A stretch of 64,000 nt of DNA. Source: an uncultured Candidatus Saccharibacteria bacterium. Its GTDB lineage: Bacteria > Patescibacteriota > Minisyncoccia > Phycocordibacterales > DATDWN01. The stretch spans positions 15,439 through 79,438 of the forward strand of contig CAZKCA010000004.1 of assembly GCA_964551495.1 (NCBI GenBank). The letters are read 5' to 3'. The notes beneath the pieces were generated by a model, which did no database searches, was not told the origin of the DNA, and saw only the letters and a list, made by a program, of their open reading frames with translations. This document shows, piece after piece, positions 11,457-62,108 of this stretch (position 1 is the stretch's first letter; each line of letters starts with the position of its first letter). The position numbers and the translations under genes are program-made.

Positions 11457-11457
11457 T

Positions 11458-13484: not shown

Positions 13485-13497
13485 ACTTAATGAACAC

Positions 13498-14601
13498 TTA
13501 GAAGTTAGCTGTGGCTACATATGTTAATGTAGCAGAATAAGAACCAGCTTCTGTGTTTGAGGCTATGTTGGCCAAATATCTTACAGAATAAGTGGTGTTA
13601 GCTGTCGCTCCAGTAGCACTAGCCACTTCATCTGGAAAGGCAGCTGTATCAAAAGCGAAACCAGAAGCAGCATAGGGAGCTGAAACTGTTCCAGAGCCAC
13701 CAGAAGCTGTCATTCTAAGTCCAAATTGTTCTGTTCCAACAGAAGAGGAAGAGTTTGTGTTGCCTATAGCATTTATAGTCGCCCCTCCACAAGCAGAACA
13801 AGTAAGTGTTGCTCCGTTAACTGTCATTGTGTAGCCATTAGCAGCATTTGTTCCAACAACCAAATTATGGGCTTCTGTCTCTGAACCTGTACCAGAAGTA
13901 TCTCCTGTTGCATACCTAGCTGCAGAAGCTGAAAGTGGCCCAAAGCCAATTGAGTTATCGGATATAGTAAATGTAAGAGATTGGGCAACAGTAGCTGATA
14001 CAGAAACCTGATCATCGTTCAATATATTTATTGTTATGTCACCAGAATCACCAAATGCTCCACTAATTGATATTGAGTAACTTGCAGCAGAAGCATGATT
14101 TGTTATTTGTGTGTTACCGGTTACTCCTGTTGTAGCATTTGTTCCTATTTCTATTTGTATACAAGCATTAGCTGCAATAGCGGCCGCACCAACACCATCT
14201 GAAGGAGCTGTCAAAGTTATAACTTGACCAGAAAGAGCTGCCCCCCAAGCAGTAGCTGAAGGTGTAGATGCTAACGTTTCGTTATTTGTAAAAGAAACCC
14301 CTGAACAACTAGATTGGCTTCCTGCAGAATGAGCCAAGTCTATATCTTCAAAATCTAGTGAGTTCATATTGAAACCAGATGGAAAAGTTATAGTTATAGT
14401 GTCAGTATTTTCTGCTGCACCAGTTGGAGTTCTAAATACTATAGTATGATTCGAAGCTGTACTAACTTTTTGGCTAGACATTATATCTGATGCATTTGCT
14501 ATTGAAGCAGCAGACACTGTTTTAAAAGAAACCAAAGAAAAAATGAGCGCAACCACAAGAGATACACTCAAAAAATTTTTCAAAAATGAAATATTGATCA
14601 T
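13498..14601 (-). CDS. Secreted Ser/Thr/Ala/Gly-rich surface protein. Its C-terminal ~160-aa domain is shared with the giant neighbouring protein (possible WxL-like wall-binding domain).
   Basis: Signal peptide. The C-terminal block SITFTISDNSIGFGPLSASAARYATGD...TLTCSACGGATINAIG...GSYSATLTYVATANF is about 60% identical to the C-terminus of the 14677-18504 protein. Confidence 0.5.
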   Translation of the reverse strand: MINISFLKNFLSVSLVVALIFSLVSFKTVSAASIANASDIMSSQKVSTASNHTIVFRTPTGAAENTDTITITFPSGFNMNSLDFEDIDLAHSAGSQSSCSGVSFTNNETLASTPSATAWGAALSGQVITLTAPSDGVGAAAIAANACIQIEIGTNATTGVTGNTQITNHASAASYSISISGAFGDSGDITINILNDDQVSVSATVAQSLTFTISDNSIGFGPLSASAARYATGDTSGTGSETEAHNLVVGTNAANGYTMTVNGATLTCSACGGATINAIGNTNSSSSVGTEQFGLRMTASGGSGTVSAPYAASGFAFDTAAFPDEVASATGATANTTYSVRYLANIASNTEAGSYSATLTYVATANF

Positions 14602-14676
14602 AAATTAATTATTAAATTGTTGAGTTAATTGTAACATTAGAGTTAAAAACAATAAAAAAATCTGTGGATATCTTTT

Positions 14677-25939: not shown

Positions 25940-26142
25940 AAATTAATTATATCGCTTTCTGTGATTTTGCTAAGCACACGCCTCGGGCACTATAACCTAT
26001 CACGAGTTGGCTGGCAGACTTGGAATCTTCACACCTGGGAAACCCACGGTTTTCCCAATCCTTCCTCCACGGGAAACTCCCGTTTCCCGACCCTTTCCCA
26101 GTTCGAGTCCAAGTCTGAACAACAAAACAGCTCCGCTGTTTG

Positions 26143-29827: not shown

Positions 29828-30094
29828 TTAAATCTTTCGACCGAAATTATATAAATAATCTTTTAATCTCCTTTTTAGAAGCCTTGCTCCTTGTGTAGTT
29901 TTTAAATATCTTTCTCTTCTCCTTGCATCACTTTCTACAAGACACGCTTCATAATATATTACCTTCCAAGGTAAACCTTTTTTAGTTGAAAGATTTAACC
30001 CTTGATTATGTTCCTTTAATCTTTTCTTTAAATCAGAAGTATAACCCTTGTATAAATCATCGTCCTTGTTTTGTAAAACATAAATATAGAACAT
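29828..30094 (-). CDS. GIY-YIG nuclease-domain protein (UPF0213/YhbQ-like).
   Basis: FYIYVLQNKDDDLYKGYTSDLKKRLKEHN...YYEAC. The GIY...YIG and R...E residues are arranged as in this family. Paralog at 52417-52662. Confidence 0.7.
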   Translation of the reverse strand: MFYIYVLQNKDDDLYKGYTSDLKKRLKEHNQGLNLSTKKGLPWKVIYYEACLVESDARRRERYLKTTQGARLLKRRLKDYLYNFGRKI

Positions 30095-30174
30095 AATCTA
30101 ACTAAAATTTCACTACAGGGTCATACCTATTTAGTATAACTCATTAAAAAAGGGTTCGCAAAAATACTAAAACC

Positions 30175-31047: not shown

Positions 31048-31055
31048 ATTTTTTG

Positions 31056-31128
31056 AGCCGATAAAGAGACTTGCACTCTTGACCTCACCCTTACCATGGG
31101 TGTGCTCTACTACCTGAGCTATATCGGC
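31056..31128 (-). tRNA. tRNA-Thr(GGU).
   Basis: Manual fold: acceptor GCCGATA/TATCGGC, D arm GCTC-AGGTAGTA-GAGC, anticodon stem CACCC/GGGTG with loop ATGGTAA, T arm AAGAG-TGCAAGT-CTCTT. The unusual G at T-loop position 55 lowers confidence. Confidence 0.55.
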
Positions 31129-34314: not shown

Positions 34315-34391
34315 GTCGGCGTAGCTCAGTTGGTTAGAGCGTGGGACTCATAAGCCCAAGGTCGGAGGTTCGATCCCCCCCGCCGACACCA
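34315..34391 (+). tRNA. tRNA-Met(CAU) (elongator or Ile2-type), CCA encoded.
   Basis: GTCGGCG-TA-GCTC-AGTTGGTTA-GAGC...loop CTCATAA...GGAGG-TTCGATC-CCCCC-CGCCGAC-A-CCA. Close to E. coli elongator tRNA-Met. Confidence 0.75.
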
Positions 34392-34572
34392 GAGTGTCTA
34401 GGAGAAAGCTCTGGGAGAGCTTTCGTGGGGGATCGAAGCCCGATTGAGCTATTTTATGAGCTAGCTAAATAAAATAGCCAATTGGGATACTGATCCTGTA
34501 AGGATCGATCCTTCAATACAGAACCGACAAGCAGGAAAATATTTGTCGAAGATTCCCTCCCCCGCCGACACA
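34392..34572 (+). repeat. tRNA-abutting structured element, copy A (family shared with 34822-35016, 52756-53087 and 61734-61901).
   Basis: Starts right after the CCA of tRNA-Met. Contains hairpin gctattttat-GAGCTAGCTA-ataaaatagc and module UACUGA-ucc-UGUAA-gga-UCGAUCC. Ends with cccccgccgacaca, a copy of the tRNA-Met 3' end. Confidence 0.55.
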
Positions 34573-34792: not shown

Positions 34793-34821
34793 GATTAGGA
34801 TTTGGTCATAAATTAATAATG

Positions 34822-35016
34822 TAGGGACCAGGATTTTTTCCATAATTTAACTCGCCGTCGCTCATTAAATTATGGAACGCAGATTTTCGACAAGCTCTAC
34901 TGAGTTTGTAAACCGAAAATCTGTGCAAATCCTGACATAAACTGCTCCCAGCAGTTTACTGTCCGCGCAAAATATAAAATAAAAACCGCCCTTTGGGGCA
35001 GTTTTTATTTTGATTG
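34822..35016 (-). repeat. tRNA-abutting structured element, copy D (downstream of minus-strand tRNA-Met).
   Basis: Read on the minus strand it has an imperfect hairpin plus U-run, then the perfect 10-bp stem cagauuuucg/cgaaaaucug enclosing acaagcuc-uacu-gaguuuguaaac, then ccauaauuuaa-UGAGCGACGGCGAG-uuaaauuaugg. It ends aauccuggucccuac, which copies the T-loop/acceptor 3' end of tRNA 35017-35087. Confidence 0.55.
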
Positions 35017-40224: not shown

Positions 40225-40734
40225 CTAATATATAATTTCTGTTCCTCTTTCAAATCTCCTTCCAGAAGATGTATCACAAGTATTATAACCCCTTGATTGA
40301 ATATTTGTATCTCCATCTGCCTCTTTAATAACAGTTACTATAGCACAAGACCCATTGGAAAATGTTAGGTAAAATATACTGTTTGGATCTGCCGATCCTC
40401 CTCCACCAATTTTACTTAACTGACTTGGGTTTGTTGGTATAGTTTGACTATTTGAAGTTACTAATTGATCGTTACATCTTATTGCACCAGCTGTAGTGGT
40501 AGAAAAAGCACTTAAATTAGGATTATCTGGATTTTTTATATCCCAGTATAAAGCACATTCAATACCACTCTCTGCCGCATAAAAAGCATGCTGAGACTCT
40601 TGGCCTGTATAAACTAAAATAAGTTGCTTTAATGAAATATTGATAACAACAAAACTAACCAATAAAAGTATGCTTGTGGTTATTATAGAAATAAGTAAAG
40701 TAAATCCTTTTCTTTTTTTATTTAAATCTTTCAT
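40225..40734 (-). CDS. Pilin-like protein (minor pilin/pseudopilin, PilX-like).
   Basis: N-terminal KRKGFTLLISIITTSILLLV class-III signal-like segment. Part of the T4P operon. Confidence 0.5.
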   Translation of the reverse strand: MKDLNKKRKGFTLLISIITTSILLLVSFVVINISLKQLILVYTGQESQHAFYAAESGIECALYWDIKNPDNPNLSAFSTTTAGAIRCNDQLVTSNSQTIPTNPSQLSKIGGGGSADPNSIFYLTFSNGSCAIVTVIKEADGDTNIQSRGYNTCDTSSGRRFERGTEIIY

Positions 40735-40736
40735 AA

Positions 40737-41327
40737 TTAATTTTTATCAAAAACAGACTGCCTAACAGTTATTGTTTTACCAAATGGACCACTGTTCCAA
40801 GAAACTCTAACAACTACAACAACCTCTTCTGCGGTTACTTGTTCAAATTGTATTTCTCTTCTAAATTTTGTTTCAATCCAACCGGCGGAAGTAGAATACC
40901 CATAAAGTTTTGTTGTCGAATTTTGCCTCAAAACAGAACAGGTTCCAAAACCTCCAGGACAAGCTGTCATTGTTTTAAGTGGAGAATCAATAATGCAAGT
41001 TTTTCCAAAATAACAAGGATCCGCTGGAACAGCAGACATCCCATTTAGCCAGTTAACTTCTGTTCCGCCAAATTCTAGGGCATAGAGATTTGCTATACCA
41101 TTATCATCTCTAATATTTCTGACATATTCCATAGCTTCCTGAATCAAATAAAAAGCAGTTACCTGATCTTTTGCAAAAGAAGATGTTGCTAAACCGTTTT
41201 GAACAGCAGTAAAAGTCCCAAGTATAGACATGGTCAGTATAGAAATAGCAATCAAGGTTTCTACTAAAGTAAAACCTAGTTTATTTTTATAACTGACAGT
41301 ATAATTTTTTTTATTTTTATTTACCAT
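40737..41327 (-). CDS. Type IV minor pilin (PilV-like).
   Basis: Prepilin motif KLGFTLVETLIAISILTM (G/FTLxE). Confidence 0.6.
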   Translation of the reverse strand: MVNKNKKNYTVSYKNKLGFTLVETLIAISILTMSILGTFTAVQNGLATSSFAKDQVTAFYLIQEAMEYVRNIRDDNGIANLYALEFGGTEVNWLNGMSAVPADPCYFGKTCIIDSPLKTMTACPGGFGTCSVLRQNSTTKLYGYSTSAGWIETKFRREIQFEQVTAEEVVVVVRVSWNSGPFGKTITVRQSVFDKN

Positions 41328-41329
41328 TT

Positions 41330-41881
41330 TTATATAAAATCTATTTGCCTTTGAGAAACAGTTGTTTGTAAGCTAAAAGATGATCTGGTGTCCAAATCTG
41401 GACCTGAATGACCTCTAATTAAAATTATTACTCTCGGTTGGTTTAAATTTCCTGGATAAACAGAAGACCCGAACACCCAAAAGGTTAGATCTTCTACTGT
41501 TATATCTGGAGATGTTACATAATAATCAACTCCAGCATCATTTCTTACAATTCTTCCTCCAGATAAACTATAAGTAACCTGTGTTCCTGTCTGAGATAAA
41601 AGGGTTAAAGAAGAAGCTCCTCCAGCACAATCCATTGGCTGACTTAAAACACCAGTAGTACCACAGTGGTAATTTACCCCAAACCTAATTTGTCTGGTCA
41701 TACCTTCTAAAGAAGAATTTAGGTTATCCATAACCGCTCTTAAGTTTTGAGACTTACGATTGGCATCCAAAACAGTCAAAATTGATCCCATACATATAAC
41801 CATAACCAAAGTGAAAACTGAGACAGAAACCATAAGTTCAACAAGTGTAAATCCTTTTTTGTTTTTTATATTTTTAAACAT
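41330..41881 (-). CDS. Type IV minor pilin (PilW-like).
   Basis: Prepilin motif KKGFTLVELMVSVSVFTLV. Confidence 0.6.
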   Translation of the reverse strand: MFKNIKNKKGFTLVELMVSVSVFTLVMVICMGSILTVLDANRKSQNLRAVMDNLNSSLEGMTRQIRFGVNYHCGTTGVLSQPMDCAGGASSLTLLSQTGTQVTYSLSGGRIVRNDAGVDYYVTSPDITVEDLTFWVFGSSVYPGNLNQPRVIILIRGHSGPDLDTRSSFSLQTTVSQRQIDFI

Positions 41882-41885
41882 AATT

Positions 41886-42491
41886 TTAATCTACTGAAAT
41901 CTGCCCTGTGTTTTCAATATTTATTGTAACAGTATTACCTAGTGGAGACCTCAAAACTATACCTCCTGTTTTGTATAATCCTCCAAAAAATTCATAACCT
42001 GGATTTGTAAATCTTATTTTAGCATCTGGATTAGGTCTTAAAAAGCTTATATTAATACCTATAACACTTGGGTTGACAGGACAATTTGAGGCACCGTTGA
42101 AAGGTGTGCCACAAACCTGACTTACATAGATTCCATTTCTAATTTGTTGTTTAGATATACACTCCCCAACACAATCATTAGTATGATCATATTTTTGATC
42201 ATTATTTAAATCAGCGTACAAATAATAAACAGTTGGATTGCTTATATCAAAATAAATACCATAAGCATTATCAAAATCCTGAGTACCCGAACCAGTTTCC
42301 CTAACGGAAACTCCATAAGCCTGAGACTCTCTTATTGCTATGGCTATTTCCTGGGCAGTAGAAGAAAGAGATAATCTGTCACTAAATTCCCTATAGCCAA
42401 ATAAAACAACAGCACTTATTAAAACAACGATAGCTATGACTATATTCATCTCTATAAGAGTAAATCCTTTTTGGTTAAAATTATTTTTCAT
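41886..42491 (-). CDS. Type IV minor pilin (FimT/GspH-like).
   Basis: Prepilin motif QKGFTLIEMNIVIAIVVLI. Confidence 0.6.
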   Translation of the reverse strand: MKNNFNQKGFTLIEMNIVIAIVVLISAVVLFGYREFSDRLSLSSTAQEIAIAIRESQAYGVSVRETGSGTQDFDNAYGIYFDISNPTVYYLYADLNNDQKYDHTNDCVGECISKQQIRNGIYVSQVCGTPFNGASNCPVNPSVIGINISFLRPNPDAKIRFTNPGYEFFGGLYKTGGIVLRSPLGNTVTINIENTGQISVD

Positions 42492-42492
42492 A

Positions 42493-43347
42493 CTATAAAA
42501 CTATAAGTGAAATAAACTTTTCTATACTAAATACGTCTATCTGACTAAAAAAGGCAATGAACGTTCCTAAAATTAAAAAAGGAGCAAAAGGAATTTCAGA
42601 TTTCATACCAACAAATTTTCTTTTATTTATTCTATCAAAAATAATCATCCCCACGCTCCACAAAGCTCCTACCCAAAAAGCAAAAATAATAGCTGAAATA
42701 CCAATAGCAAATCCCAAAAGTGCCCCTATACCAAATATCAGTTTTATATCTCCAAAACCAATTAATCTACCTTTTGACATAAGCCATAGTAAATAAAATG
42801 GGATAGAAAGTAAAAACGGAGATAAAGCATCAAAAATATCTATAATGTTTAAATCATTTATTTTGTAGCTTAAAAATAAAATAAGTTTGATTGAGGCAAT
42901 AAATATAAAAAGATAAACCAATCTATCTGGTATAATCATGTGTTTTAAGTCATACAGACCTATGACAACCAAAAGACTGAAGGAAACAATATATGATAAA
43001 AATAAAAATAAAATATAAGGAAAACTGTTTTCAAAAACTGAATTGTAAACTGGCAAATAATAGAGATGTCTAATAACGACGCCAACAAAAAGAAGTCCTA
43101 CCAAAACTTCCACAATAAAATACCTTGGGGATATCTGACTTTTACAAGATCTACATTTGCCTCCCAAAAATAAATAACTAAACAAAGGTATTAGTTCATA
43201 CCATTTAAGTTTTGAAGAACAATGAAAACACTCAGACCTACCGGAAACAATAGGCATACCACTGTTATATCTTAAAGCTACAACATTTAGAAAACTTCCA
43301 ACCAGAGCTCCTAAGAAAAAAACATATAAAAACAGAAAAGTCTCCAT
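42493..43347 (-). CDS. pilD: Prepilin peptidase (A24 family).
   Basis: N-terminal CxxC...CxxC zinc-binding segment (CFHCSS...CRSC), eight TM helices. Conserved-Asp region not confirmed. Confidence 0.75.
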   Translation of the reverse strand: METFLFLYVFFLGALVGSFLNVVALRYNSGMPIVSGRSECFHCSSKLKWYELIPLFSYLFLGGKCRSCKSQISPRYFIVEVLVGLLFVGVVIRHLYYLPVYNSVFENSFPYILFLFLSYIVSFSLLVVIGLYDLKHMIIPDRLVYLFIFIASIKLILFLSYKINDLNIIDIFDALSPFLLSIPFYLLWLMSKGRLIGFGDIKLIFGIGALLGFAIGISAIIFAFWVGALWSVGMIIFDRINKRKFVGMKSEIPFAPFLILGTFIAFFSQIDVFSIEKFISLIVL

Positions 43348-43459
43348 GTATATATTATATATGTTTAGAGAGATATTAAAAAATATAATTGGTGATAACT
43401 AGACAACAAAAAACCGGTGATACCGGTCTTTTGTTAGGTTTAAACCAAGATAATTTGGA

Positions 43460-43882
43460 TTAAGGACAAACTGTAACAGCTCCAGCCGGATTTGTTGTTA
43501 ACAATTTTGATTGACCTGTAGAGTCAACACACCATGAATCTGTTGGTTCTGTTTTTAGTTCTACCCAAGCAGCCCAAGCTGTTGCAGAATCTGCACATCT
43601 TGTAGCCAGTGTTCCAGCAGATCCAGCAGCTGTTATAGCAGCGTTAACAGCATTAGTCACTTGTGTGTTATCACAAACAGTTTCATAACTTCCATTAGCT
43701 CCATCATAAACCAACTCTGCTTGAGCACGAATATTGTTTAGGTTTGATTTAATGGCAGCATCAGCACCTTTACCTCTTGCTGTGTTTAGAGAAGCTAAAA
43801 CGACAGAAGAAAGAATACCGATGATTGCGATAACCACTAGAAGTTCGATAAGTGTGAAACCGCGACTATATGTTTTTTTCAT
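43460..43882 (-). CDS. pilA: Type IVa major pilin.
   Basis: From internal Met: MKKTYSRGFTLIELLVVIAIIGILSSVVLASL. C-terminal Cys pair (C...C) forms the D-region. Confidence 0.75.
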   Translation of the reverse strand: MKKTYSRGFTLIELLVVIAIIGILSSVVLASLNTARGKGADAAIKSNLNNIRAQAELVYDGANGSYETVCDNTQVTNAVNAAITAAGSAGTLATRCADSATAWAAWVELKTEPTDSWCVDSTGQSKLLTTNPAGAVTVCP

Positions 43883-44009
43883 AAATAATTTTGTATACAA
43901 ACTTATATAAAAACTGATAATAAAATCCTTTACGGATTGTCGTTTTTTAAACGAATACTTATATTATACTTTAATAATGGCTAGAAAAAAGGTTGCCTGT
44001 GGATAATCA

Positions 44010-44435
44010 CTAAGGGCAGTTTGTTGTAGTCGGAGCAGTATCTGAAAGTCTTGCTACCCCAGAACTGTCTATACACCAATAATCTACACCTGATGATCCA
44101 TTTACCAAGTTTTGACTTTTCAAAGGAGCTGCTGCAGCCCAGTTTGATGTGTTATCAAAGCAAACATCAGAAGTTGTGTTCCCTGCCCCTGTTTGACTTG
44201 CCTCATTCAATGCTCTTGTTACTGTAGTATCAGCACAGACATTATCATACGTCCCACTATCTAAATCATACCTAAGTTCGGCTGAAGCCCTTACTGAATT
44301 TAGGTTTGATTTAACAGCTGCATCTGCGCCTCTTTGTCTAGCCGAGTTTAGAGAAGCCAAAACAACAGAAGAAAGAACTCCTATAATAGCTATAACGACC
44401 AGTAACTCTATCAATGTAAAACCTTTATTTTTCAT
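44010..44435 (-). CDS. pilA: Type IVa pilin, second paralog.
   Basis: From internal Met: MKNKGFTLIELLVVIAIIGVLSSVVLASLNSAR. C-terminal Cys pair. Confidence 0.7.
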   Translation of the reverse strand: MKNKGFTLIELLVVIAIIGVLSSVVLASLNSARQRGADAAVKSNLNSVRASAELRYDLDSGTYDNVCADTTVTRALNEASQTGAGNTTSDVCFDNTSNWAAAAPLKSQNLVNGSSGVDYWCIDSSGVARLSDTAPTTTNCP

Positions 44436-44460
44436 TTTTGTAAAATAAACTGATAATATT

Positions 44461-45669
44461 TTATACTCCAGCAGAAGCAATGTTATAAATAGGCATAAGA
44501 ACAGAGGCTAGAAGTATTCCTACACCAAGACCCAATGCCACAATCATAATAGGCTCTATCAACCCGACAAGAGTATCTACCGCTGTAGTAACCTCTCTTT
44601 GATAAAACTTGGCTAAAGTTTTTAAAATATTTCCAAGCTCCCCTGTCTCTTCTCCAACTTTTATCATCTGGACCATTATACCTGGAATTTCTTTATACTG
44701 AGCAAAAGCACTAGATAGAGTTCCCCCACTTTTTACATCATATAAAGTTTGATCGATGATTTTTTTATAAACAGCATTATCTACCACCGCTCCTGTAATT
44801 TCCAAGGCTCTAAGTATAGGTATACCAGATATAATCATGGTGTTCATGTTGTCAGCAATCCTAGAAAGATAAAGCTTCCTATACAAATCACCCAAGTAAG
44901 GAATCTGAAGTTTTATTTCATCTAATCGATAAGCACCCTCTTCTGTTTGAGAATACTTCCAGACAAAAAAACCAATTATAACAGCACCTACAGCCATAAA
45001 CACACCGTAGTTCAAAAATAGATTACTTATACCTAAAACGATTTTAGTATAAATAGGGATTTCCTGTCCTGATTCAGTAAGCATGACAGATATTTTTGGA
45101 ATAATAACTGTAAGCATAAGTATCATAACGCCAACAAAAGTTGCAATAACAAAAGCTGGGTAAACTAAGGCATTTTTAGCTTTTGATGTTACTTCATAAG
45201 TCCTATCCAAATAATCAGCAAGATAATTAAAAGTATCATCCAATTTTCCTGATTCTTCTCCCGCTTTGACCATGTTCACATAAAAAGGAGAAAAAGCGTC
45301 TGGATGTTTGGACAAAGCATTTGAAATAGAAGAACCTCCTTGCAAATCATCTGCTATCTGGAATAAATTCTTTTGAAGTAAAGTATTGCTCGATTGTTCA
45401 GCTACCAATCTAAAAATTCTCAAGGCTGAAACTTGAGCTTGGAATAAAGTAGCCATCTGACGAGACAATATAACAATATCTTTATTAGATATTTTATTTA
45501 GAAAAGGAATTTCTATATTAAAAGGTTTTTTCTCTTCTGGAGCTTTTATATCTACTATTATAAGGTTTTGTTTTTGAAGCAAACCTATAGCACTATCAGC
45601 TCCAGGAGCCTCTATTGTTCCTTCTACTTTCTCACCTGTTTGTTTTAAAGCTTTATAAGAATACAGCAT
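44461..45669 (-). CDS. pilC: Type IV pilus inner-membrane platform protein (GspF family).
   Basis: Two GspF repeats, three TM helices, 402 aa. Confidence 0.8.
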   Translation of the reverse strand: MLYSYKALKQTGEKVEGTIEAPGADSAIGLLQKQNLIIVDIKAPEEKKPFNIEIPFLNKISNKDIVILSRQMATLFQAQVSALRIFRLVAEQSSNTLLQKNLFQIADDLQGGSSISNALSKHPDAFSPFYVNMVKAGEESGKLDDTFNYLADYLDRTYEVTSKAKNALVYPAFVIATFVGVMILMLTVIIPKISVMLTESGQEIPIYTKIVLGISNLFLNYGVFMAVGAVIIGFFVWKYSQTEEGAYRLDEIKLQIPYLGDLYRKLYLSRIADNMNTMIISGIPILRALEITGAVVDNAVYKKIIDQTLYDVKSGGTLSSAFAQYKEIPGIMVQMIKVGEETGELGNILKTLAKFYQREVTTAVDTLVGLIEPIMIVALGLGVGILLASVLMPIYNIASAGV

Positions 45670-45679
45670 AACTAAATAA

Positions 45680-46747
45680 TTATAACATTCTTTCTAATCC
45701 CCTTGGATTTTGTGAAAACATGTAAGCATTTTCAATAGTTATCTCGCCTTGTCTAACTAGTTCTGTAAGATACCTGTTTAAATCTATCATTCCAAATTCT
45801 GAACCAGTTTCTATAACAGAACCTATTTCATGTATCCTGTTTTCTCTAATCAAGTTGGCTACAGCATTATTGTTTATCAAAAGCTCACATGCTGGTATCA
45901 ATCCTCCAGAAACTCTTGGTATCAATCTTTGAGAAAATATTCCGAGTAAACTTGATGAGAGCTGAACCCTAATTTGGTTTTGTTGTTCTCCTGGAAAAGA
46001 GTCTATTATACGAGCAATGGTTTGAGCAGCATTATTTGTGTGCAATGTAGAAAACACCAAGTGTCCTGTTTCAGCAGCAGTCACAGCTGTAGCTATTGTC
46101 TCAGGATTTCTCATTTCACCTATCATAACCACATCAACATCTTGTCTAAAAAGATCTTTCAAGGCTTGAGCAAAATCTGGTGTATCTTCCCTAACTTCTC
46201 TTTGGTCAACCAAAGATTTTTTATCTTCAAATATATACTCTACAGGATCTTCTATAGTTATTATATGTTCTAATCTTCTTTCATTGACCATATCTATCAT
46301 TGCTGCCAAAGTGGTACTTTTACCTTGCCCTGTAGGACCAACAACCAAGAAAAATCCTTGTTGTTTTGTTGTAAAAGTTTCTAAGATAGAAGGTAGCTTT
46401 AGTTCTTCTAAAGTTTTTATTCTGTTTGAAATAAGACGCATAGCAATACCAACTTTACCTAACTGGAAAAATACATTGATCCTAAACCTTGCATCTTCTT
46501 TATACTGATAAGAAAAATCTATAGCTTTATCATTTAAAAACTTAGCCTTTTTTGGCTCATCCAAAAGCTCCTCCAAAATTCCCTTTATATCATTTTTTGT
46601 TATAACCTCATGTTTAACTATTGGTATTAAAGACCCGGCAACACGGATAATAGGAGCTTTACCTTCAGAAAGATGCAAATCTGAAGCATCTTCTTTCAAA
46701 ACAATTTGTATTAAATTTTCTAAAACTTTTTTATAATCAGCAGTCAT
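45680..46747 (-). CDS. pilT: Twitching-motility/retraction ATPase PilT.
   Basis: Walker A GPTGQGKSTT, Asp/His boxes, no N-terminal GSPII_E_N domain, 355 aa. Confidence 0.8.
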   Translation of the reverse strand: MTADYKKVLENLIQIVLKEDASDLHLSEGKAPIIRVAGSLIPIVKHEVITKNDIKGILEELLDEPKKAKFLNDKAIDFSYQYKEDARFRINVFFQLGKVGIAMRLISNRIKTLEELKLPSILETFTTKQQGFFLVVGPTGQGKSTTLAAMIDMVNERRLEHIITIEDPVEYIFEDKKSLVDQREVREDTPDFAQALKDLFRQDVDVVMIGEMRNPETIATAVTAAETGHLVFSTLHTNNAAQTIARIIDSFPGEQQNQIRVQLSSSLLGIFSQRLIPRVSGGLIPACELLINNNAVANLIRENRIHEIGSVIETGSEFGMIDLNRYLTELVRQGEITIENAYMFSQNPRGLERML

Positions 46748-47137
46748 TTATTTTTTATTATCTTTATAAATAGAAACAACCTGATCAACAACCTCTGAAG
46801 GTATAGTTGTCGCTTTTACAATATAACCAGCAACACCAAGCTCTTTTGCTTTATCCACCTCATCTGGTTGATTTGTAAGCATAACCACAATAGCCTCTGG
46901 GCAAAGTTTTTCTTTTCTAATATTTTCTAAAAGCTCTATACCATCCATTCCTGGCATTATTATATCCAAAACAATTATGTCATACTCCTCTCCTGCTCTT
47001 AGTTTATCTAAAGCATTTATACTGCTTGAAACAACAGTCACATCCAGATCTGCTTTCTTGAATTTCAAAGAATACATATCCAAAAGAAAACTATCGTCAT
47101 CTACAAGCATTATTTTTGTTTTTTCTTTTTCTGTCAT
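46748..47137 (-). CDS. Single-domain response regulator (CheY-like receiver).
   Basis: KIMLVDDDSFLLDMY...DIIVLDIIMPGMDGIELLENIRK, conserved Asp pocket, 129 aa. Confidence 0.75.
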   Translation of the reverse strand: MTEKEKTKIMLVDDDSFLLDMYSLKFKKADLDVTVVSSSINALDKLRAGEEYDIIVLDIIMPGMDGIELLENIRKEKLCPEAIVVMLTNQPDEVDKAKELGVAGYIVKATTIPSEVVDQVVSIYKDNKK

Positions 47138-47146
47138 ATAAGTTAA

Positions 47147-48910
47147 TTATAACGTATTTACCTCTTCAAAAGGAATTTCCTTGTGCATTGCTTTAAGTAT
47201 TGCATCTTCTTTCATTGAGAGCATTCCCTTTTGTCTAGCCAATTTAGTAATTTCAATTTCTGTAGGATTTTTCAAAACAACACTTTCTAACTCTTTATCC
47301 ATTTCCAGAACCTCCAAAACAGCCAACCTGCCTCTTGTTCCATTTGGACAATCTGAAGTCCCAGAAGCTTCGTAAACAGAATCTGTAAACTCTAATTGAT
47401 TTCTATATTTCTCTGGCAAATCAGCAAATTGTTTCTCTACCATCATTTGTATAGCCCCCTCAACAGGTATAGCCTTACCTGCTCCAGGACAAAGACCTTT
47501 AACAAGTCTCTGAGCAATAGCTAGTATCAGGGTTGGTGCAATAAGATAAGGATCTACACCCATATCTATAAGTCTTGGAATAACTCCAACAGCAGAGTTT
47601 GTGTGAATAGTAGAAAATACCAAGTGTCCTGTAAGAGCCGCTTGTATAGCCAACTGAGCAGTTTCTTTATCTCGAATCTCACCAACCATAATTATATCTG
47701 GATCTTGACGTAGAGTTGTACGAAGTCCTGAGGCAAAAGTATACCCTATCTCTGGTCTTATTTGTGACTGTGAAATACCTTCCATGTTGTACTCAACGGG
47801 ATCTTCCAAAGAAAGAACATTTTGATGTTCTCTATCAAGCTCATTTAGCATGGCATAAAGAGTTGTTGTTTTTCCCGAACCAGTTGGACCAGAAATAAGA
47901 ATTAGTCCATATGGTCTTTCTATTGCTTTATGAATTTTTTCCAAGTTACTTTTAGAAAGACCCAGCTTATCAAGAGGTCTAACTCCTTTTTCCTGATCCA
48001 AAATTCTCATCACAATTTTCTCTCCAAAATACGAAGGAAAAGTAGAGACACGAAAGTCAATTTTCCTACCCTCTATTCTTGCTGTAAAACGACCATCCTG
48101 AGGTTTTCTTTTTTCATCAAGTCTCATATTACAAAGGATTTTTATACGAGCCACAACAGCTGAATGGAGTTTGGAAGGTAGAACCAAACTTGTGTTCATA
48201 ACACCATCTACACGAAATCTAACTTTCACATTTTCTCTCCAGGGTTCTATGTGAATATCGGAAGCGTTTCCATCTGTTGCATATCTCAAAATAGTAGCCA
48301 CAATTTTTGTAACAGGAGCATCTTCATTTATTTTTCCATCTTTCCCACCAGAATCCCCAGAATCCGGAGAATCTCCAGAATCATGACTTTCATCATCATT
48401 ATCATCTCCTTTTTTCTTTTTATTAACTTCTTCCTCTATTTTTAGTTCTGTTTCTAGTTCAGACAACGCCTTAGAAACTTCACCCGTCAAACCCTTGTAT
48501 GAAGAAAATATTTTATTAAAATCTGTTTCAGAAATTAAAAATATCTTAAAAGGCATTTCTAATTTTGCTGAAATAAAATTCAAAGCATCTCTGGCCTCAA
48601 TATTGTCAGGATTAACCATCCCAACCTCCAAAACTCCATCTTCTACACCAATCGGAATAAATTGATAATGAGATGCTGATTCTTCTGGTATGTACTCCAA
48701 AATCTTACCTGGTACATCCTTACCTTCCATGTTTCTTGTTGGTACACCTAAATACTCTCCTTGCACTTCCAAAATATCTGAAGCAGAAAATCCTTTTTGT
48801 ATTAAAACTTGTTCAGGAGTTAAACCAAGTCTAGCAGATTCTTTACTGACCTGTTTTAACTGATCATCTGAAATTTTTCCCTTTTGGAGTAATAGGTTTA
48901 AAATATCCAT
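47147..48910 (-). CDS. pilB: Type IV pilus assembly ATPase PilB (GspE family), with an acidic Ser/Asp low-complexity insert.
   Basis: N-terminal GSPII_E_N domain, Walker A GPTGSGKTT, tetracysteine motif region CPGAG...C. Insert KKKKGDDNDDESHDSGDSPDSGDSGGKDGK. Confidence 0.85.
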   Translation of the reverse strand: MDILNLLLQKGKISDDQLKQVSKESARLGLTPEQVLIQKGFSASDILEVQGEYLGVPTRNMEGKDVPGKILEYIPEESASHYQFIPIGVEDGVLEVGMVNPDNIEARDALNFISAKLEMPFKIFLISETDFNKIFSSYKGLTGEVSKALSELETELKIEEEVNKKKKGDDNDDESHDSGDSPDSGDSGGKDGKINEDAPVTKIVATILRYATDGNASDIHIEPWRENVKVRFRVDGVMNTSLVLPSKLHSAVVARIKILCNMRLDEKRKPQDGRFTARIEGRKIDFRVSTFPSYFGEKIVMRILDQEKGVRPLDKLGLSKSNLEKIHKAIERPYGLILISGPTGSGKTTTLYAMLNELDREHQNVLSLEDPVEYNMEGISQSQIRPEIGYTFASGLRTTLRQDPDIIMVGEIRDKETAQLAIQAALTGHLVFSTIHTNSAVGVIPRLIDMGVDPYLIAPTLILAIAQRLVKGLCPGAGKAIPVEGAIQMMVEKQFADLPEKYRNQLEFTDSVYEASGTSDCPNGTRGRLAVLEVLEMDKELESVVLKNPTEIEITKLARQKGMLSMKEDAILKAMHKEIPFEEVNTL

Positions 48911-48939
48911 AAACTATATTATTAAAAAAAACAAAATAA

Positions 48940-49233
48940 TTATCTACCGAACTGAGAAAACGGATTGTCTCTACCTTGAATTTCTTGACTCCTAGGTGAC
49001 CCCGGCTCACGAAGGCTTCTAAACAAAGGACTTGAAAAAACAGAGGCATTTATAACTGTCATATCAAATGTTTCAGCTAATTGTATTATATCTTGTGTAG
49101 TCTGGTCAGCTTCCGAGGTTAATTGATCTGTTGGAACAGGCGCACTTTTAAAGAAAGAGTTGTATATTATAAACCCCGCTATTCCAAACATAAATATTGC
49201 TATTGTTGCTTTTTGTGTTTGTGATAATGCCAT
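48940..49233 (-). CDS. Small pilus-cluster protein (possible PilP-like), hypothetical.
   Basis: N-terminal TM. Lies between pilO and pilB. Confidence 0.35.
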   Translation of the reverse strand: MALSQTQKATIAIFMFGIAGFIIYNSFFKSAPVPTDQLTSEADQTTQDIIQLAETFDMTVINASVFSSPLFRSLREPGSPRSQEIQGRDNPFSQFGR

Positions 49234-49237
49234 ATGT

Positions 49238-49795
49238 TTAACGTAAAATATATGTGTTAGCTTCGACCGAAAAATTTAAGACTGATGAATTTTGATCATC
49301 ACTACCGGCAGATATAGAAACTGAATAAACATCTATAATCTGAACATTTGACTCCAGATCTTTCAAAAAACTTATAAACTGAGGATAGGTACTACTAATA
49401 TCAAAGGTTATTCTAACTTTTTTAAAGGGAGATAAGTTAGAATCTTCTAGTTGAGCCTGAGAACTATTTTCTTCTGGTATATTTGAATTAAAAGAATCTA
49501 TAGAGGTATTATATCTTGAAGCTAAATAATTCAAATCATTGACCAAACCTGGACCATCAAAAGTAGGAGGTACAACTTTTTTCATTTTCTCTATATCTTC
49601 TAATGATATAGAATTGTATTGACCAAGCAATTCCTCTCTTTTTTGAGATATATTTTTGGCTTTATCTAATACATCAGCATACTTATTTTTTTCTTCTCTG
49701 GTTAATTGCATTTCTGCATATAAAGGAGAAATATACATATAGTATGCAGCTATACATATGATGATTATAATAAATGGTGTTAAGGTTGATTTCAT
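49238..49795 (-). CDS. pilO: Type IV pilus assembly protein PilO-like.
   Basis: N-terminal TM followed by a coiled coil. Position downstream of pilN. Confidence 0.55.
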   Translation of the reverse strand: MKSTLTPFIIIIICIAAYYMYISPLYAEMQLTREEKNKYADVLDKAKNISQKREELLGQYNSISLEDIEKMKKVVPPTFDGPGLVNDLNYLASRYNTSIDSFNSNIPEENSSQAQLEDSNLSPFKKVRITFDISSTYPQFISFLKDLESNVQIIDVYSVSISAGSDDQNSSVLNFSVEANTYILR

Positions 49796-49799
49796 AATT

Positions 49800-50447
49800 T
49801 TATTCCTCTATTAATTCACTCTCATTAACTATGATTTCTGTATTCTCCGAAGAAACAATATTATCTACTAAATTTTTTTCATAAGATAATATACTTTTAT
49901 CTATTATGGCACTAAAATTAGCTTCTACCGCTCCCGATTCTGTTACGATAAAATCTGAAAACTCTGGGTTTATAATAAAACTTTGGTTTTTAAAAATTTC
50001 GGATTGTTGAGCAAAAGCTGCATAACTAGCACCTTGCATAACAATCTCTACTAAAACTTGACCACTTATTTCTGAATAAGAAAATTCAATGAACTGTATT
50101 GGTCTAACTGTTAATGATTGTAGAGAATCAAATAATGCAGATACAGATATGTGGTTTTGTAGTAACTGATTTGTTGATTTAATTGAGTTACTAAAATCAA
50201 TAAGTTCATTTATTGTTTCAGGCTCAAAAGCTTCTCTGGTGTCTGCTATATCCTGCTTCAATCTAACAATTTCATTGTTTAAATTATTTTTATAAAAATA
50301 CAAACCTCCCCAAGCTCCCAACGTAAGAATAAATAGGATAGTTGCTACAGTAGAAAACAAATTAAAAGATTTGACTCTTTTAAAAGAATCTTCTCTTGGA
50401 GATATTGTATTTTTAGGAATGAACGATGTTTGAAATTTAGGTTCCAT
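49800..50447 (-). CDS. pilN: Type IV pilus assembly protein PilN-like.
   Basis: Short cytoplasmic N-terminus, TM helix, coiled-coil. Position after pilM. Confidence 0.55.
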   Translation of the reverse strand: MEPKFQTSFIPKNTISPREDSFKRVKSFNLFSTVATILFILTLGAWGGLYFYKNNLNNEIVRLKQDIADTREAFEPETINELIDFSNSIKSTNQLLQNHISVSALFDSLQSLTVRPIQFIEFSYSEISGQVLVEIVMQGASYAAFAQQSEIFKNQSFIINPEFSDFIVTESGAVEANFSAIIDKSILSYEKNLVDNIVSSENTEIIVNESELIEE

Positions 50448-50491
50448 ACTTTACTAAATTATATTACACACAAAAACAAAATGCTATAAAG

Positions 50492-51622
50492 TTATTCCAC
50501 TTCCTGTAACTTTCTCAAGGCTAAACCAACAGCTACAGTAAATTGAGGACCTGTTTGTCTTAAAATATCTTCTAGAAAAGCCGGAGTGACAACTTTTGAA
50601 AAAGGATCTCCGCTTATAACCTCTGTCTGAAAGCTTTTTTGAGCAACATCTTTTATACCAATCAAAGCACTTCCCCCTCCTACCAAAAATATCTTGCTTA
50701 CATTTTTACTGTATTTTTTTTCATAAGCCAGAACAACCCGATTTGCTTCTGAAAATATATAATCTAAAGTCACAGTAATAACATCTTTTATCCCCATATT
50801 TTCTGGAGAAAGAGATAGGCCTTTTTCTCTCTTCATTATTTCAGCTTCAGCAAACGAAATACCTAATGCTTTAGATAAAGCCTGAGTTATATTATAAGAC
50901 CCATTGTTTATCGTATGAGAAGCTCTAAGTATCCCCTTTTCTACTATATAAATTTTAGTCGTCATTGCCCCCATATCCAAAATCATCACAGGAGTAACAT
51001 CTTGATCCAAAACAGACCTCATTGTACTAAATATTTCTATTTCAAAAAAATCAGCCTGCAAACCACTTTGAGTAGTTATTTTTTTATATTTTTCTATAGT
51101 TGAATTATGCAAAGCCACAACCAATACCTCTAATCTTGGTGGTATTGGTCTACCATCTAGACCCATTTTTTGATTTGGATCTGATTCAGGATTTTTATCT
51201 TGTGGAATCAGTGACCAATCTATAACAACTTCAGACATTGGAACCGGGATATACTTCCTGGCTTCAATAGGAACCATATTTGATAATTCTTTAATTGGAA
51301 CCACTGGAAAATCTATAACAGAAACTAAACTGGAGGCAAAAGGGATTGAGAGTCCAGCAACTCTTGATGTTATATTTACTTCTTTTTCAACTAATAAATC
51401 ATTAATTGCCTCTATAACTTTGTCCAAAGGAAGATTTGTTGCCTCTCCTACACTACCTTTTGCATAAGGACCCAAGGAAAGCTCTCCATAAGTCTCTAAG
51501 ATAGCCCTTCCGTTTTTTCTAGAAAGTTGCACAACTTTCAATGAAGATGTACCAATATCTAGACCAATAACACTTGGACTCTGCCTATTAAAAAGCTTGG
51601 TGAAAAAATTCGCCATATTCAT
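50492..51622 (-). CDS. pilM: Type IV pilus assembly ATPase-fold protein PilM.
   Basis: Actin-like fold with SVIGLDIGTSSLKVVQL N-terminal phosphate-1 motif, 376 aa. Confidence 0.75.
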   Translation of the reverse strand: MNMANFFTKLFNRQSPSVIGLDIGTSSLKVVQLSRKNGRAILETYGELSLGPYAKGSVGEATNLPLDKVIEAINDLLVEKEVNITSRVAGLSIPFASSLVSVIDFPVVPIKELSNMVPIEARKYIPVPMSEVVIDWSLIPQDKNPESDPNQKMGLDGRPIPPRLEVLVVALHNSTIEKYKKITTQSGLQADFFEIEIFSTMRSVLDQDVTPVMILDMGAMTTKIYIVEKGILRASHTINNGSYNITQALSKALGISFAEAEIMKREKGLSLSPENMGIKDVITVTLDYIFSEANRVVLAYEKKYSKNVSKIFLVGGGSALIGIKDVAQKSFQTEVISGDPFSKVVTPAFLEDILRQTGPQFTVAVGLALRKLQEVE

Positions 51623-52318: not shown

Positions 52319-52416
52319 TATGATAATCTGTTACCTATTGGAGAGTTGGCTTCAGCCCAAGGCTGATCCGCCTCGGGCGGAGAGTGGTCGAAAACTTTTC
52401 TAACATTAATAGTCAT

Positions 52417-52662
52417 ATGTATTATGTATACATATTAAAAAGCAAAATAAATTCAAAACTATACAAAGGTTTAACTTCTGACTTGAAAAGAAGAGTTAAA
52501 GAACATTGTTCTGGAAATTCAAAATTTACTAGTGAAAATGGACCTTGGGAACTAGTTTATTATGAAGCTTTTAATAAAAAAGATGATGCGATAAGAGAAG
52601 AAAAGTTTTTAAAGTCAGGAAAAGGACGAGAAAGAATAAAATACTTGTTAAACATTAAATAA
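52417..52662 (+). CDS. GIY-YIG nuclease-domain protein (UPF0213/YhbQ-like), paralog of 29828-30094.
   Basis: From internal Met: MYYVYILKSKINSKLYKGLTSDLKRRVKEH...YYEAF. Ends 4 nt before tRNA-Ser. Confidence 0.65.
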   Translation: MYYVYILKSKINSKLYKGLTSDLKRRVKEHCSGNSKFTSENGPWELVYYEAFNKKDDAIREEKFLKSGKGRERIKYLLNIK

Positions 52663-52753: not shown

Positions 52754-52755
52754 CA

Positions 52756-52911
52756 GGAGAAATTTAACAAAGTTAAATTTAGTAGAGCAGGTTTTGTAAT
52801 CAAAACCGTCGCGAGGATTCGAAGCCCGATTGAGGTATTTTATGAGCTTACGAAATAAAATACCCAATTGGGGTACTGAAACTGTAAGTTTCGAATCCCT
52901 GCGTCTCCGCA
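52756..52911 (+). repeat. tRNA-abutting structured element, copy B.
   Basis: Hairpin gguauuuuau-GAGCUUACGA-aauaaaauacc (compensatory to copy A). Module UACUGA-aac-UGUAA-guu-UCGAAUCC. Ends with cctgcgtctccgca, an exact copy of the tRNA-Ser 3' end. Confidence 0.55.
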
Positions 52912-53087
52912 ACAGCAGATTGAGTTGAGTACATCTCAACAAAATCTGATGTCGGTAGAAGTTAGGGATGAGAAAGACGGAGGCGGTATACAAGCGAGCA
53001 AAGCGAGGCTTGTCGCCGAGTCGGGGTCGAAAGTTCTTATGAGCGGAGCGAATTAGAAACTTGTGACCGAATCCCTGCGTCTCCGCC
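52912..53087 (+). repeat. tRNA-abutting structured element, copy C (divergent), in tandem with B.
   Basis: GC-richer. Hairpin aaguucuuau-GAGCGGAGCGA-auuagaaacuu. Ends with gaatccctgcgtctccgcc, a third copy of the tRNA-Ser 3' end. Confidence 0.45.
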
Positions 53088-53093
53088 AAAAAT

Positions 53094-53114
53094 AAAACAC
53101 CCTAAGGGTGTTTT
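53094..53114. terminator. Bidirectional intrinsic terminator (aaaacaccc-taa-gggtgtttt).
   Basis: 9-bp stem with an A-run and a T-run. Lies between element C and the end of the protease gene. Confidence 0.65.
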
Positions 53115-53124
53115 ATTTTTTCTA

Positions 53125-61733: not shown

Positions 61734-61901
61734 GGATTCGACCCTTACAGGGTCAGTACTGAGCACCAGGACTCTCCCTCGAAATTTTTTCGTCGCCACT
61801 CAAAAATTTCTGGGCACCGGTTTGTCGACAAACTCTGGTGAGTTTGTAAACCGACAAACCGTTCGAATCCTTAATACAAAGCTACGCTTTGTACTTACGT
61901 G
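61734..61901 (-). repeat. tRNA-abutting structured element, copy E (downstream of tRNA-Ile).
   Basis: On the minus strand: hairpin plus U-run, then the 10-bp stem cgguuugucg/cgacaaaccg (compensatory to copy D) enclosing acaaacuc-ugguga-guuuguaaac, then UACUGA-ccc-UGUAA-ggg-UCGAAUCC. It ends with cuggugugcc, a copy of the tRNA-Ile T-arm/acceptor 3' end. Confidence 0.55.
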
Positions 61902-61974
61902 TGCACGTACCAGGATTCGAACCTGGGACCGGTCGTGTATAAGACGACTGCTCTACCAACTGAGCTATACGTGC
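61902..61974 (-). tRNA. tRNA-Ile(UAU).
   Basis: GCACGTA-TA-GCTC-AGTTGGTA-GAGC-A-GTCGT-CTTATAC-ACGAC-CGGTC-CCAGG-TTCGAAT-CCTGG-TACGTGC-A. Fully canonical cloverleaf. Confidence 0.8.
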
Positions 61975-62108
61975 AATATATCTAACTTTAAACAACTGAC
62001 TGTGTCCGCCATAGCCTGCCTTAGCAATCGACGGTGGGGCTAACCTCTAATATTAACTACATTAAAATACCATAATTACAAAAAATAAAAAAGGGTTATA
62101 ATATAGAC

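Follow-up and report, generated by a model that had tools for sequence, protein, structure and literature searches.

A composite, partly decayed member of a non-coding, modular cassette family in the 3' flanks of tRNA genes of Paceibacteria

The window analysed here is a stretch of 64,000 nucleotides (33% G+C) from an uncultured Candidatus Saccharibacteria bacterium (contig CAZKCA010000004.1 of GenBank assembly GCA_964551495.1, positions 15,439 to 79,438), which contains six tRNA genes, none of them with an encoded CCA. The element directly behind its tRNA-Ile(UAU) gene, copy E, is composite and partly decayed and belongs to a modular family of non-coding cassettes that occupies the 3' flanks of tRNA genes in Paceibacteria (Patescibacteria, or candidate phyla radiation, CPR). 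The units of this family follow one order: S0, made up of the final 20 nt of the tRNA, is in many cases followed by a terminator-like hairpin; then come an antisense copy of the tRNA end (AS) split by a hairpin (X), a cargo of further hairpins and a renewed sense copy of the tRNA end (S1). They are 130-330 nt long, hold no real open reading frame (ORF), and their cargo always starts directly after the AS, which ends in ...TCGAA. A preceding sequence-only reading had described E as an element that joins a module of copy D to a module of copies A and B; the antisense segments, the X hairpin, a hairpin here called h3, the inner copy of the tRNA end (S1') and the frame common to all copies were absent from it. 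The parts of E are the following.

61974-61902, minus strand: tRNA-Ile(UAU), without encoded CCA, called by ARAGORN and scoring 74 bits against the Rfam tRNA model.
61921-61902, minus strand: S0, TTCGAATCCTGGTACGTGCA, the last 20 nt of tRNA-Ile and the template copied by E.
61901-61725, minus strand: copy E as a whole (177 nt), followed by a T5 run at 61724-61720.
61901-61896, minus strand: first half of the AS (aAcc), CACGTA, antisense of the acceptor 3' strand TACGTG and adjoining the tRNA end.
61895-61873, minus strand: X hairpin, GTACAAAGC-GTA-GCTTTGTAT, predicted by folding, which splits the AS near the acceptor/T-stem junction.
61872-61862, minus strand: second half of the AS (aT), AAGGATTCGAA, antisense of the T-loop and the T-stem 3' strand.
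61861-61818, minus strand: cargo module i, of D type, a 10-bp stem CGGTTTGTCG/CGACAAACCG around GTTT-ACAAACTC-ACCA-GAGTTTGT.
61817-61773, minus strand: cargo module h3, predicted by folding, GTGCCCAG, then a hairpin GAAATTTTT/AAAAATTTC with the loop GAGTGGCGACGA, then GAGGGAGA.
61772-61761, minus strand: S1', GTCCTGGTGCTC, an incomplete direct repeat of the tRNA 3' end, internal to E, which closes the first (type iii) unit.
61758-61738, minus strand: UGUAA hairpin, TACTGA-CCC-TGTAA-GGG-TCGA, that is TACTGAcccTGTAAgggTCGA, as in A and B.
61741-61725, minus strand: S1'', TCGAATCCTGGTGTGCC, the terminal direct copy, exact over 12 nt and decayed in its acceptor part.

Since E contains two copies of the tRNA end, S1' and S1'', it is a tandem of two units, each of which ends in a decaying copy of its own, and not a single fused element. 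The first, of type iii, consists of AS-X-aT, module i, h3 and S1'; the second is what remains of an older unit of type ii, namely a UGUAA hairpin, which stands without the module ii hairpin, its normal predecessor, and S1''. All features of the S0-AS-X-cargo-S1 frame are found in E, and their order is identical in a metagenomic orthologue, L168 (L numbers denote loci other than the window). The AS of E matches the tRNA at 16 of 20 positions in a split alignment and its S1 at 13 of 20; S1' pairs with aT in the predicted fold, and its decayed ending, GGTGCTC, recurs in the S1 of L003. Against chance expectations from dinucleotide-preserving shuffles, the shared parts stand out clearly. The 28-nt core pattern of module i, whose interior 8-bp stem ACAAACTC/GAGTTTGT with the loop ACCA is common to copy D, occurs at two sites of the window and no more (E, and 34888-34915 in D) with none expected, so that the D-type 10-bp covarying stem reported in E is indeed there; TACTGAcccTGTAAgggTCGA has three exact matches (A at 34488, B at 52874, and E) against 0.03 expected, in agreement with the assignment of a UACUGA-ccc-UGUAA-ggg module to E as in A and B; and TCGAATCCTGGT occurs twice (in the tRNA T-arm at 61920-61909 and at the end of E at 61741-61730) against 0.07 expected. 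The claim that E ends in a copy of the T-arm and acceptor 3' strand of tRNA-Ile is borne out, with an exact match over 12 nt of the T-arm and a decayed acceptor part, in which the copy diverges (GTGCC vs ACGTGCA). The end of E also had to be moved from 61734 to 61725, with the T5 run extending to 61720, and gaguuuguaaac turned out to be GTTTACAAACTC as read on the plus strand.

The AS is truly complementary to the tRNA gene, reaching through C74 but not CCA. Over 105 units, compared in ungapped or one-insertion alignments, the identity of the AS to the tRNA complement is 0.93-1.0 at positions 54-62 and 0.65-0.83 at positions 64-73, and that of S1 to S0 is 0.86-0.98 at positions 58-73. At G-U pairs of the tRNA the AS carries the Watson-Crick complement of the 3' strand and not the base of the 5' strand (about 40 cases vs 3), and about 25 of 28 units have a G, complementary to C74, in front of the AS. 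The AS contains the anti-T-loop ATTCGAA, and the core common to the repeats is the T-loop TTCGAA. X, which most family members possess and which most often splits the AS at the acceptor/T-stem boundary, folds as a single hairpin in 53 of 61 cases, with a folding energy of -9.6 against -3.0 for shuffled sequences and frequently a UGGGA loop. Where S1 departs from S0, the AS sides with S0 233 times and with S1 ten times, and the mismatches between AS and S0 display no wobble preference (41 G-U vs 34 A-C); the two copies therefore decay without compensating each other and are not co-selected as a helix. S1 or AS has often decayed (E, L003, L009, L012) with the tRNA retained. The direct repeat reaches into the terminator in nine of 76 units, and no cargo-less AS-S1 hairpins were found, the minimum cargo being about 50 nt. 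In the tRNA-Phe trailer of L006, the terminator hairpin that follows S1 is the one that follows S0 except for an inverted 4-nt loop (AGTA vs TACT), which is what copying of one of the two from the other strand of the palindrome would produce.

At least four cargo families (type ii, module i, h3 and type iv) occupy this frame. Type ii consists of GCCCGAUUGAG...CCAAUUGGG plus the UGUAA hairpin, and h3, with the loop GAGCGACGGCGA, is also found in D, L168, L075, L086, L088, L006 and L057. Cargo of the D/E type and of the A/B type lies in an identical frame of AS, X, anti-T-loop ending in ...TCGAA, cargo and tRNA 3'-end copy, and the two interchange at orthologous tRNAs; the proposal that both sub-families form one element type is upheld and strengthened, with the refinement that E itself resolves into tandem units. 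The covariation analysis that had been suggested was carried out, and the stems pair far above shuffled alignments, with none of 500 shuffles reaching the score for either module i or type ii. In 28 type ii units 92.4% of the cells pair, compared with 80.1% after shuffling; the paired fraction is 96.5% in the module ii hairpin, where nine pairs have changed on both sides, and 98.6% in the UGUAA hairpin, which has two covarying pairs. Where a type ii stem changes on one side only, the result is always G-U or U-G, unlike in the mismatches between AS and S0, and a G-U pair is itself conserved; this places the structure on the tRNA-sense strand. In the module i alignment of E, L168, D and L059, 72 cells are 98.6% paired and eight of 18 pairs change on both sides. 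The loops UGGGA, GAGCNNGCGAA and UGUAA are conserved, and the interiors of the cargo resemble each other more closely when they come from one assembly (0.81) than when they come from different ones (0.65; p = 3e-6).

By its MurF homologues the window belongs to Patescibacteria/Parcubacteria. The distribution of the family was assessed by scanning species-representative genomes with the pattern CAATTGGGRTACTGANNNTGTAAG, the resulting counts being those among the matches listed. The A/B-type module with a trailing tRNA copy is present in more than 117 species-level genomes, all of them Patescibacteria (Paceibacteria), and in 97 of 125 matches a co-oriented tRNA lies 76-600 nt upstream, the 3' end of which is repeated by the sequence behind the hairpin. 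Co-orientation of units with their tRNA is 100%, and when the other cargo types are included tRNAs of all 20 amino-acid identities are represented, bearing out the view that the element is not bound to one tRNA identity. At the fetched loci a downstream S1 accompanies 111 of 218 tRNAs (upstream control, 2 of 221) and a downstream AS 128 of 218 (upstream control, 11 of 221). A terminator-like hairpin with a T-run precedes the AS in about half of the units; several units have no terminator at this place and are therefore transcribed together with the tRNA, and a terminator and promoter scan found no simple terminator in E. With Rfam 15, a scan of the whole window at gathering thresholds gave only tRNAs, and E-value scans of the E, A/D and B/C regions gave nothing meaningful; among 2.9 million viral contigs there were no matches to the type ii pattern. 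The literature searched contained no description of these units, only that of group I introns in the anticodon loop of Patescibacteria tRNAs (PMC13011429) and a CPR genome-finishing paper that does not mention them. The family is thus large and apparently undescribed and uncatalogued.

A metagenome scan with the anticodon arm of tRNA-Ile(UAU) returned 63 loci, 58 of them usable, of which six carry a unit and 52 do not. Among the former, L168 repeats the two-unit order of E; the stems of its module i and h3 differ from those of E in a compensatory way, and its AS fits its own tRNA (CACGCA vs TGCGTG, and AAGGACTCGAA, also given as GGACTCGAA, vs the T-loop TTCGAGT); its S1', UGUAA hairpin and S1'' have decayed differently from those of E. 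Cargo is exchanged at orthologous tRNAs: that of tRNA-Ile is of type iii in the window and L168 and of type ii in L003 and L180, and identical tRNA-Ser(tga) genes with the same AS frame are followed by different cargo in L185 and L186. Tandem units, each with its own S, are found behind the window tRNA-Ser (two), in E (two), in L086 (three), and in L017 and L088, the last of which carries sub-modules of E in the opposite order; L025 contains an ectopic chimeric copy. Loci L188 and L189, which encode the same GIY-YIG protein, are 99.8% identical over 900 nt upstream and then diverge inside the acceptor 3' strand of tRNA-Ser (about locus positions 1757-1850). L189 is an empty allele, with a canonical tRNA-Ser end plus CCA and then recG, and L188 is filled, with a foreign, mismatching acceptor strand, hairpin, AS, cargo, S1 and different downstream genes; the recombination breakpoint recorded by this pair is recent and falls within S, the segment that is repeated. 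A 1-kb ORF-bearing segment lies between S1 and a second AS-cargo-S2 in L013 (629-1783), and in L001 (1-820) an ORF of 203 amino acids without Pfam match, which is not in the window, lies between the unit and murF. As regards the tRNA itself, AUA is usually decoded in bacteria by a CAU/lysidine tRNA-Ile; the window gene at 61902-61974 (minus strand) has the anticodon UAU, with an identical anticodon arm in the 63 metagenomic loci.

Units follow five of the six tRNA genes of the window, namely Ile, Gln, both Met and Ser, the last with two units. Those other than E are arranged as follows.

34389-34570, plus strand: copy A, behind tRNA-Met(CAU), with X hairpin, aT GTGGGGGATCGAA, module ii, UGUAA hairpin, an extra hairpin and S1 GATTCCCTCCCCCGCCGACA.
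52754-52909, plus strand: copy B, behind tRNA-Ser(GCU), with hairpins, aT GAGGATTCGAA, module ii, UGUAA hairpin and an S1 that equals the tRNA at 20 of 20 nt.
52910-53085, plus strand: second tandem unit behind tRNA-Ser, with type iv cargo agacggag...gagtcggggtcg...cttgtgac, a decayed AS and S2 CGAATCCCTGCGTCTCCG.
53088-53121, plus strand: intrinsic-terminator-like hairpin after the second tRNA-Ser unit.
34820-35016, minus strand: copy D, behind an initiator-like tRNA-Met, with terminator-like hairpin, aAcc, X (CUGGGAG loop), aT GTCAGGATTTGCA, module i, h3 and S1 AATCCTGGTCCCTACA.
26011-26142, minus strand: element behind tRNA-Gln(CUG), with a hairpin, a 17-nt AS CAGACTTGGACTCGAAC, a two-hairpin cargo of another type and S1 ATTCCAAGTCTGCCAG.

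The tRNA-Thr of the window is without a unit. This tRNA-Thr(GGU) (31055-31128, minus strand) was called by ARAGORN but misses the gathering threshold of the Rfam tRNA model when the whole window is scanned; its T-loop, GUGCAAG, is unusual, and the prfB start codon lies within about 8 nt downstream of the gene.

The folding of the precursor transcripts was also evaluated. In 45 full transcripts the AS is predicted to pair with S0 in 41 and the 5' acceptor strand of the tRNA with S1 in 43, and the alternative, a native tRNA followed by an AS:S1 rod, is only 5-11 kcal/mol less stable. Folded alone, the trailer pairs its AS with S1. As these folds are nearly isoenergetic, the three repeats (S0, AS and S1) could exchange strands, and the transcript looks bistable in these predictions. 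The trailer of E folds at -75 kcal/mol (z = -7.4 vs shuffles), and for E, the S1 of which is decayed, the native tRNA is the predicted fold.

The architecture, the distribution, the covariation, the decay pattern, the cargo exchange and the breakpoint inside S were obtained directly. From them we infer, with a probability of about one half, that the units are non-autonomous cassettes that recombine within the T-loop and 3' end of tRNA genes and whose hairpins act in single-stranded form. Cassettes would be inserted, stacked in tandem, swapped and homogenized by recombination or templated copying within the segment from the T-loop to the 3' end. A small rod-shaped element, in which one S is paired to the AS, might recombine with the chromosomal S to yield the order S0-loop-AS-cargo-S1, a step that would be comparable to Campbell integration or to the use of a folded-hairpin site by integron attC or CTXphi. 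The proximal S would keep the tRNA intact, leaving the distal S and the AS free to decay, and the cargo hairpins would be cis-signals selected in single-stranded form on the tRNA-sense strand, as single-stranded DNA, as read-through trailer RNA or as both. Both the excised or rod-shaped intermediate and the enzyme acting on it are postulated. A more specific version, which we hold more tentatively, is that of a protein-less cassette system in which rod-forming elements with a sense/antisense pair of tRNA ends insert, stack and exchange cargo at the T-loop, any tRNA serving as 'attI', and in which the pre-tRNA would be bistable, the AS stripping off the 3' strand and S1 replacing it.

Several points weigh against this reading. 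The re-templating of AS and S for a new tRNA is unexplained. The strong conservation of cargo loops and junction nucleotides throughout a class of bacteria with very compact genomes agrees no less well with an RNA that serves the host. Every copy is co-oriented with its tRNA, and the units without a terminator before the AS are necessarily co-transcribed. The units of tRNA-Gly(UCC) are orthologous in five genomes, with covarying terminator stems, and their S1 and aT follow lineage-specific changes in the tRNA; such long persistence with continued tracking of the tRNA needs gene conversion or selection. Finally, Pfam searches of the 57 window ORFs gave no match to a recombinase, transposase, reverse transcriptase or integrase, and a free or circular form, whose junctions were beyond the reach of these searches, was not encountered.

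The main rival, possible if on balance unlikely, is a pre-tRNA trailer useful to the host, in which AS, S0 and S1 form a three-strand switch that controls or punctuates tRNA 3' maturation (entry of RNase P, RNase Z or RNase III) or that delivers tRNA-framed cargo RNAs. The switch would alternate between a native tRNA with a trailer rod (AS:S1), which mimics the acceptor/T-stem helix of a tRNA with X as a side arm at the junction, and a state in which S0 pairs with the AS and the tRNA body is closed by S1. The bistable folds described above agree with such a function, as do the covariation of the cargo stems on the tRNA-sense strand with their conserved G-U pair and loops, the complete co-orientation with the tRNA, the position of X at the acceptor/T-stem boundary, the tracking of the tRNA by S1 and aT in orthologous sets and the wide occurrence of the family in streamlined genomes. 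On the other hand, the AS includes the complement of the discriminator and of C74, which is not tRNA-like; its mismatches with S show no G-U preference and it does not compensate mutually with S1; and either copy is often decayed where the tRNA is kept. About half of the units are preceded by a terminator-like hairpin and T-run before the AS, the type of cargo is freely exchanged, and many tRNAs, orthologues included, do without a unit (tRNA-Thr of the window; 52 of the 58 tRNA-Ile(UAU) loci).

Two further explanations concern the repeated tRNA ends. The units could be scars of integrase-mediated integration, that is attL/attR remnants of prophages or integrative elements reduced by deletion, as the direct repeats of the tRNA 3' end, the tandem accretion and the occasional gene-bearing inserts between S copies would suggest. 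This origin is disfavoured and quite improbable: units of 130-330 nt have no ORF, no integrase was found in the window, the same hairpin cargo accompanies all tRNA identities in the more than 117 genomes among the matches listed, attP and attB sites do not contain an antisense copy specific to the tRNA, and the 2.9 million viral contigs lack the type ii pattern. Still less probable is an intervening sequence in the T-loop, as in a split or intron-containing tRNA, S1 being the true 3' exon and S0-AS-cargo being removed. The minimum-free-energy folds do close the tRNA body with S1 and turn S0:AS and the cargo into a T-loop insertion; nevertheless, S0 always completes a canonical, high-scoring tRNA, whereas S1 is often truncated or mismatched (13 of 20 in E; also L003, L009 and L012), the Rfam scans matched no group I, group II or other ribozyme, and the known tRNA introns of Patescibacteria are located in the anticodon loop (PMC13011429). 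Chance similarity in AT-rich DNA, which the sequence-only reading had named as its possible refutation, or an assembly artefact has only the low G+C content in its favour and is refuted by the two to three occurrences observed against 0-0.07 expected, by the upstream controls, by the covariation and by recurrence in more than 100 independent assemblies.

Four other candidates were considered and rejected. A retroelement primer-binding site is contradicted by the missing CCA complement, TGG preceding the AS in only two units. In a tandem partial tRNA duplication or tRNA-like structure the AS would not be antisense at G-U pairs and through the T-loop, and tRNA models miss the units. On inspection, the CUGA...GAA motif is no hammerhead, since a stem follows CUGA directly and NGA is absent, and no Rfam ribozyme matched. 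A group I intron is inconsistent with the uninterrupted upstream tRNA and found no intron match in the Rfam scans.

With regard to the enzyme, a small GIY-YIG nuclease (PF01541, about 80-92 amino acids), whose gene is tightly linked to tRNA genes, is a candidate for the trans-acting nuclease. Two such genes are present in the window.

52384-52662, plus strand: GIY-YIG nuclease gene, ending 5 nt before tRNA-Ser(GCU).
29873-30109, minus strand: another occurrence of a GIY-YIG nuclease gene.

Homologues that are 65-80% identical occur across Patescibacteria (loci L185-L190, L061, L067 and L147). In six of six contigs picked by protein identity, an unbiased sample, a co-oriented tRNA-Ser follows the gene after 4-12 nt, which is suggestive of a tight linkage to tRNA genes and not of a link to the units. 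In L067 and L147 the gene precedes tRNA-Ile(UAU), and in L061 a unit contains the ORF, with S0 on one side of it and AS on the other. In the tRNA-centred loci alone the adjacency (five of ten) is not significant because of sampling bias.

Other features were observed in the surroundings of the units. Just upstream of tRNA-Ile, a G+C-rich segment at 61975-62060 on the minus strand (GCCCCACCGTCGATTGCTAAGGCAGGCTATGGCGGACACAGTCAG) gives only a weak, sub-threshold match to permuted transfer-messenger RNA on the opposite strand. Downstream of E, murF is apparently leaderless or nearly so, with an extended -10 element TGTATAAT at 61711-61704 (minus strand), 7 nt upstream of the ATG at 61696, and likewise in L001. 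Elsewhere, the segments 40225-51622 and 8153-18504 (both minus strand) hold two sets of genes. One is a cluster resembling those for type IV pili or competence, which encodes PilM, PilO, PilB/T ATPases, PilC, a prepilin peptidase and several pseudopilins; the other, upstream of it, encodes large proteins that look secreted and carry cohesin, dockerin and Ig domains, and includes, in a region locally richer in G+C, an ORF of 1275 amino acids without Pfam match.

The units follow five of six tRNA genes in the window and about half of the tRNAs in related loci, in genomes that are pared to essentials. If they are mobile, any tRNA gene could be targeted through a copied sense and antisense target without an element-encoded integrase, which would account for recombination breakpoints and gene-order changes at the tRNA genes of CPR bacteria. 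If they are functional RNAs, they would constitute a new layer of control of tRNA precursors or a natural 'tRNA scaffold' for small RNAs. Should the protein-less cassette system prove true, it would be a new route for spreading DNA without an integrase or for gating tRNA maturation in CPR bacteria. In either case, tRNA annotation, the prediction of att sites and prophages, and metagenome assembly can be led astray by the additional tRNA 3' fragments and the 20-nt repeats.

Among known systems, the tRNA group I introns of Patescibacteria are located in the anticodon loop (including position 35/36), match RF00028, self-splice and mostly lack homing endonuclease genes (PMC13011429). Like the present units, they are non-coding, structured insertions in tRNA genes of the same phylum; the units differ in following an intact tRNA, in duplicating its 3' end and in matching no intron model. 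With repetitive extragenic palindromic (REP) sequences and their BIME and REPIN assemblies, miniature inverted-repeat transposable elements (MITEs) and the IS200/IS605-derived PATE, the units have in common that they are short, non-coding, hairpin-forming and multi-copy, that they evolve in concert within genomes and that they would need a factor acting in trans, of which neither RAYT nor TnpA was seen in the window. Unlike these, the ends of a unit copy the local target and are no fixed terminal repeat, and units are found only behind tRNAs and always in the tRNA orientation.

Integrative elements that use the 3' ends of tRNA genes as attachment sites for tyrosine integrases reportedly follow a pattern of sublocations, set out by Williams in 2002. 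The units resemble them in the direct repeat from the T-loop to the tRNA end that brackets the insert, in the intact tRNA, in tandem accretion and in the decay of the displaced copy, and depart from them in being without integrase or coding capacity, in having a tRNA-specific antisense copy and a cargo common to all identities, and in their absence from the viral contigs. Attenuators and riboswitch platforms likewise contain a middle segment, here the AS, that can pair with an upstream (S0) or a downstream (S1) partner in two nearly isoenergetic folds; in the units, by contrast, the competing helix uses the tRNA body, there is no evident logic of ligand or leader peptide, and transcription would end before it reached the AS.

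Integron attC and CTXphi attP(+) are recombination sites that act as folded single strands. The units lack the R''/R' core of attC (RYYYAAC/GTTRRRY) and any IntI/attI or dif/Xer context, the Pfam scan having found no intI-like gene among the 57 window ORFs; their 20-nt inverted repeat differs with each tRNA, and their anchor is the tRNA T-loop. Yet the AS is complementary to S as in the inverted repeat of an attC-like site, and the units share with attC and CTXphi the inverted target copies around a structured spacer, a duplex that mimics the target, the dependence on hairpin and strand, the occurrence in arrays and a structure that is kept as the sequence varies.

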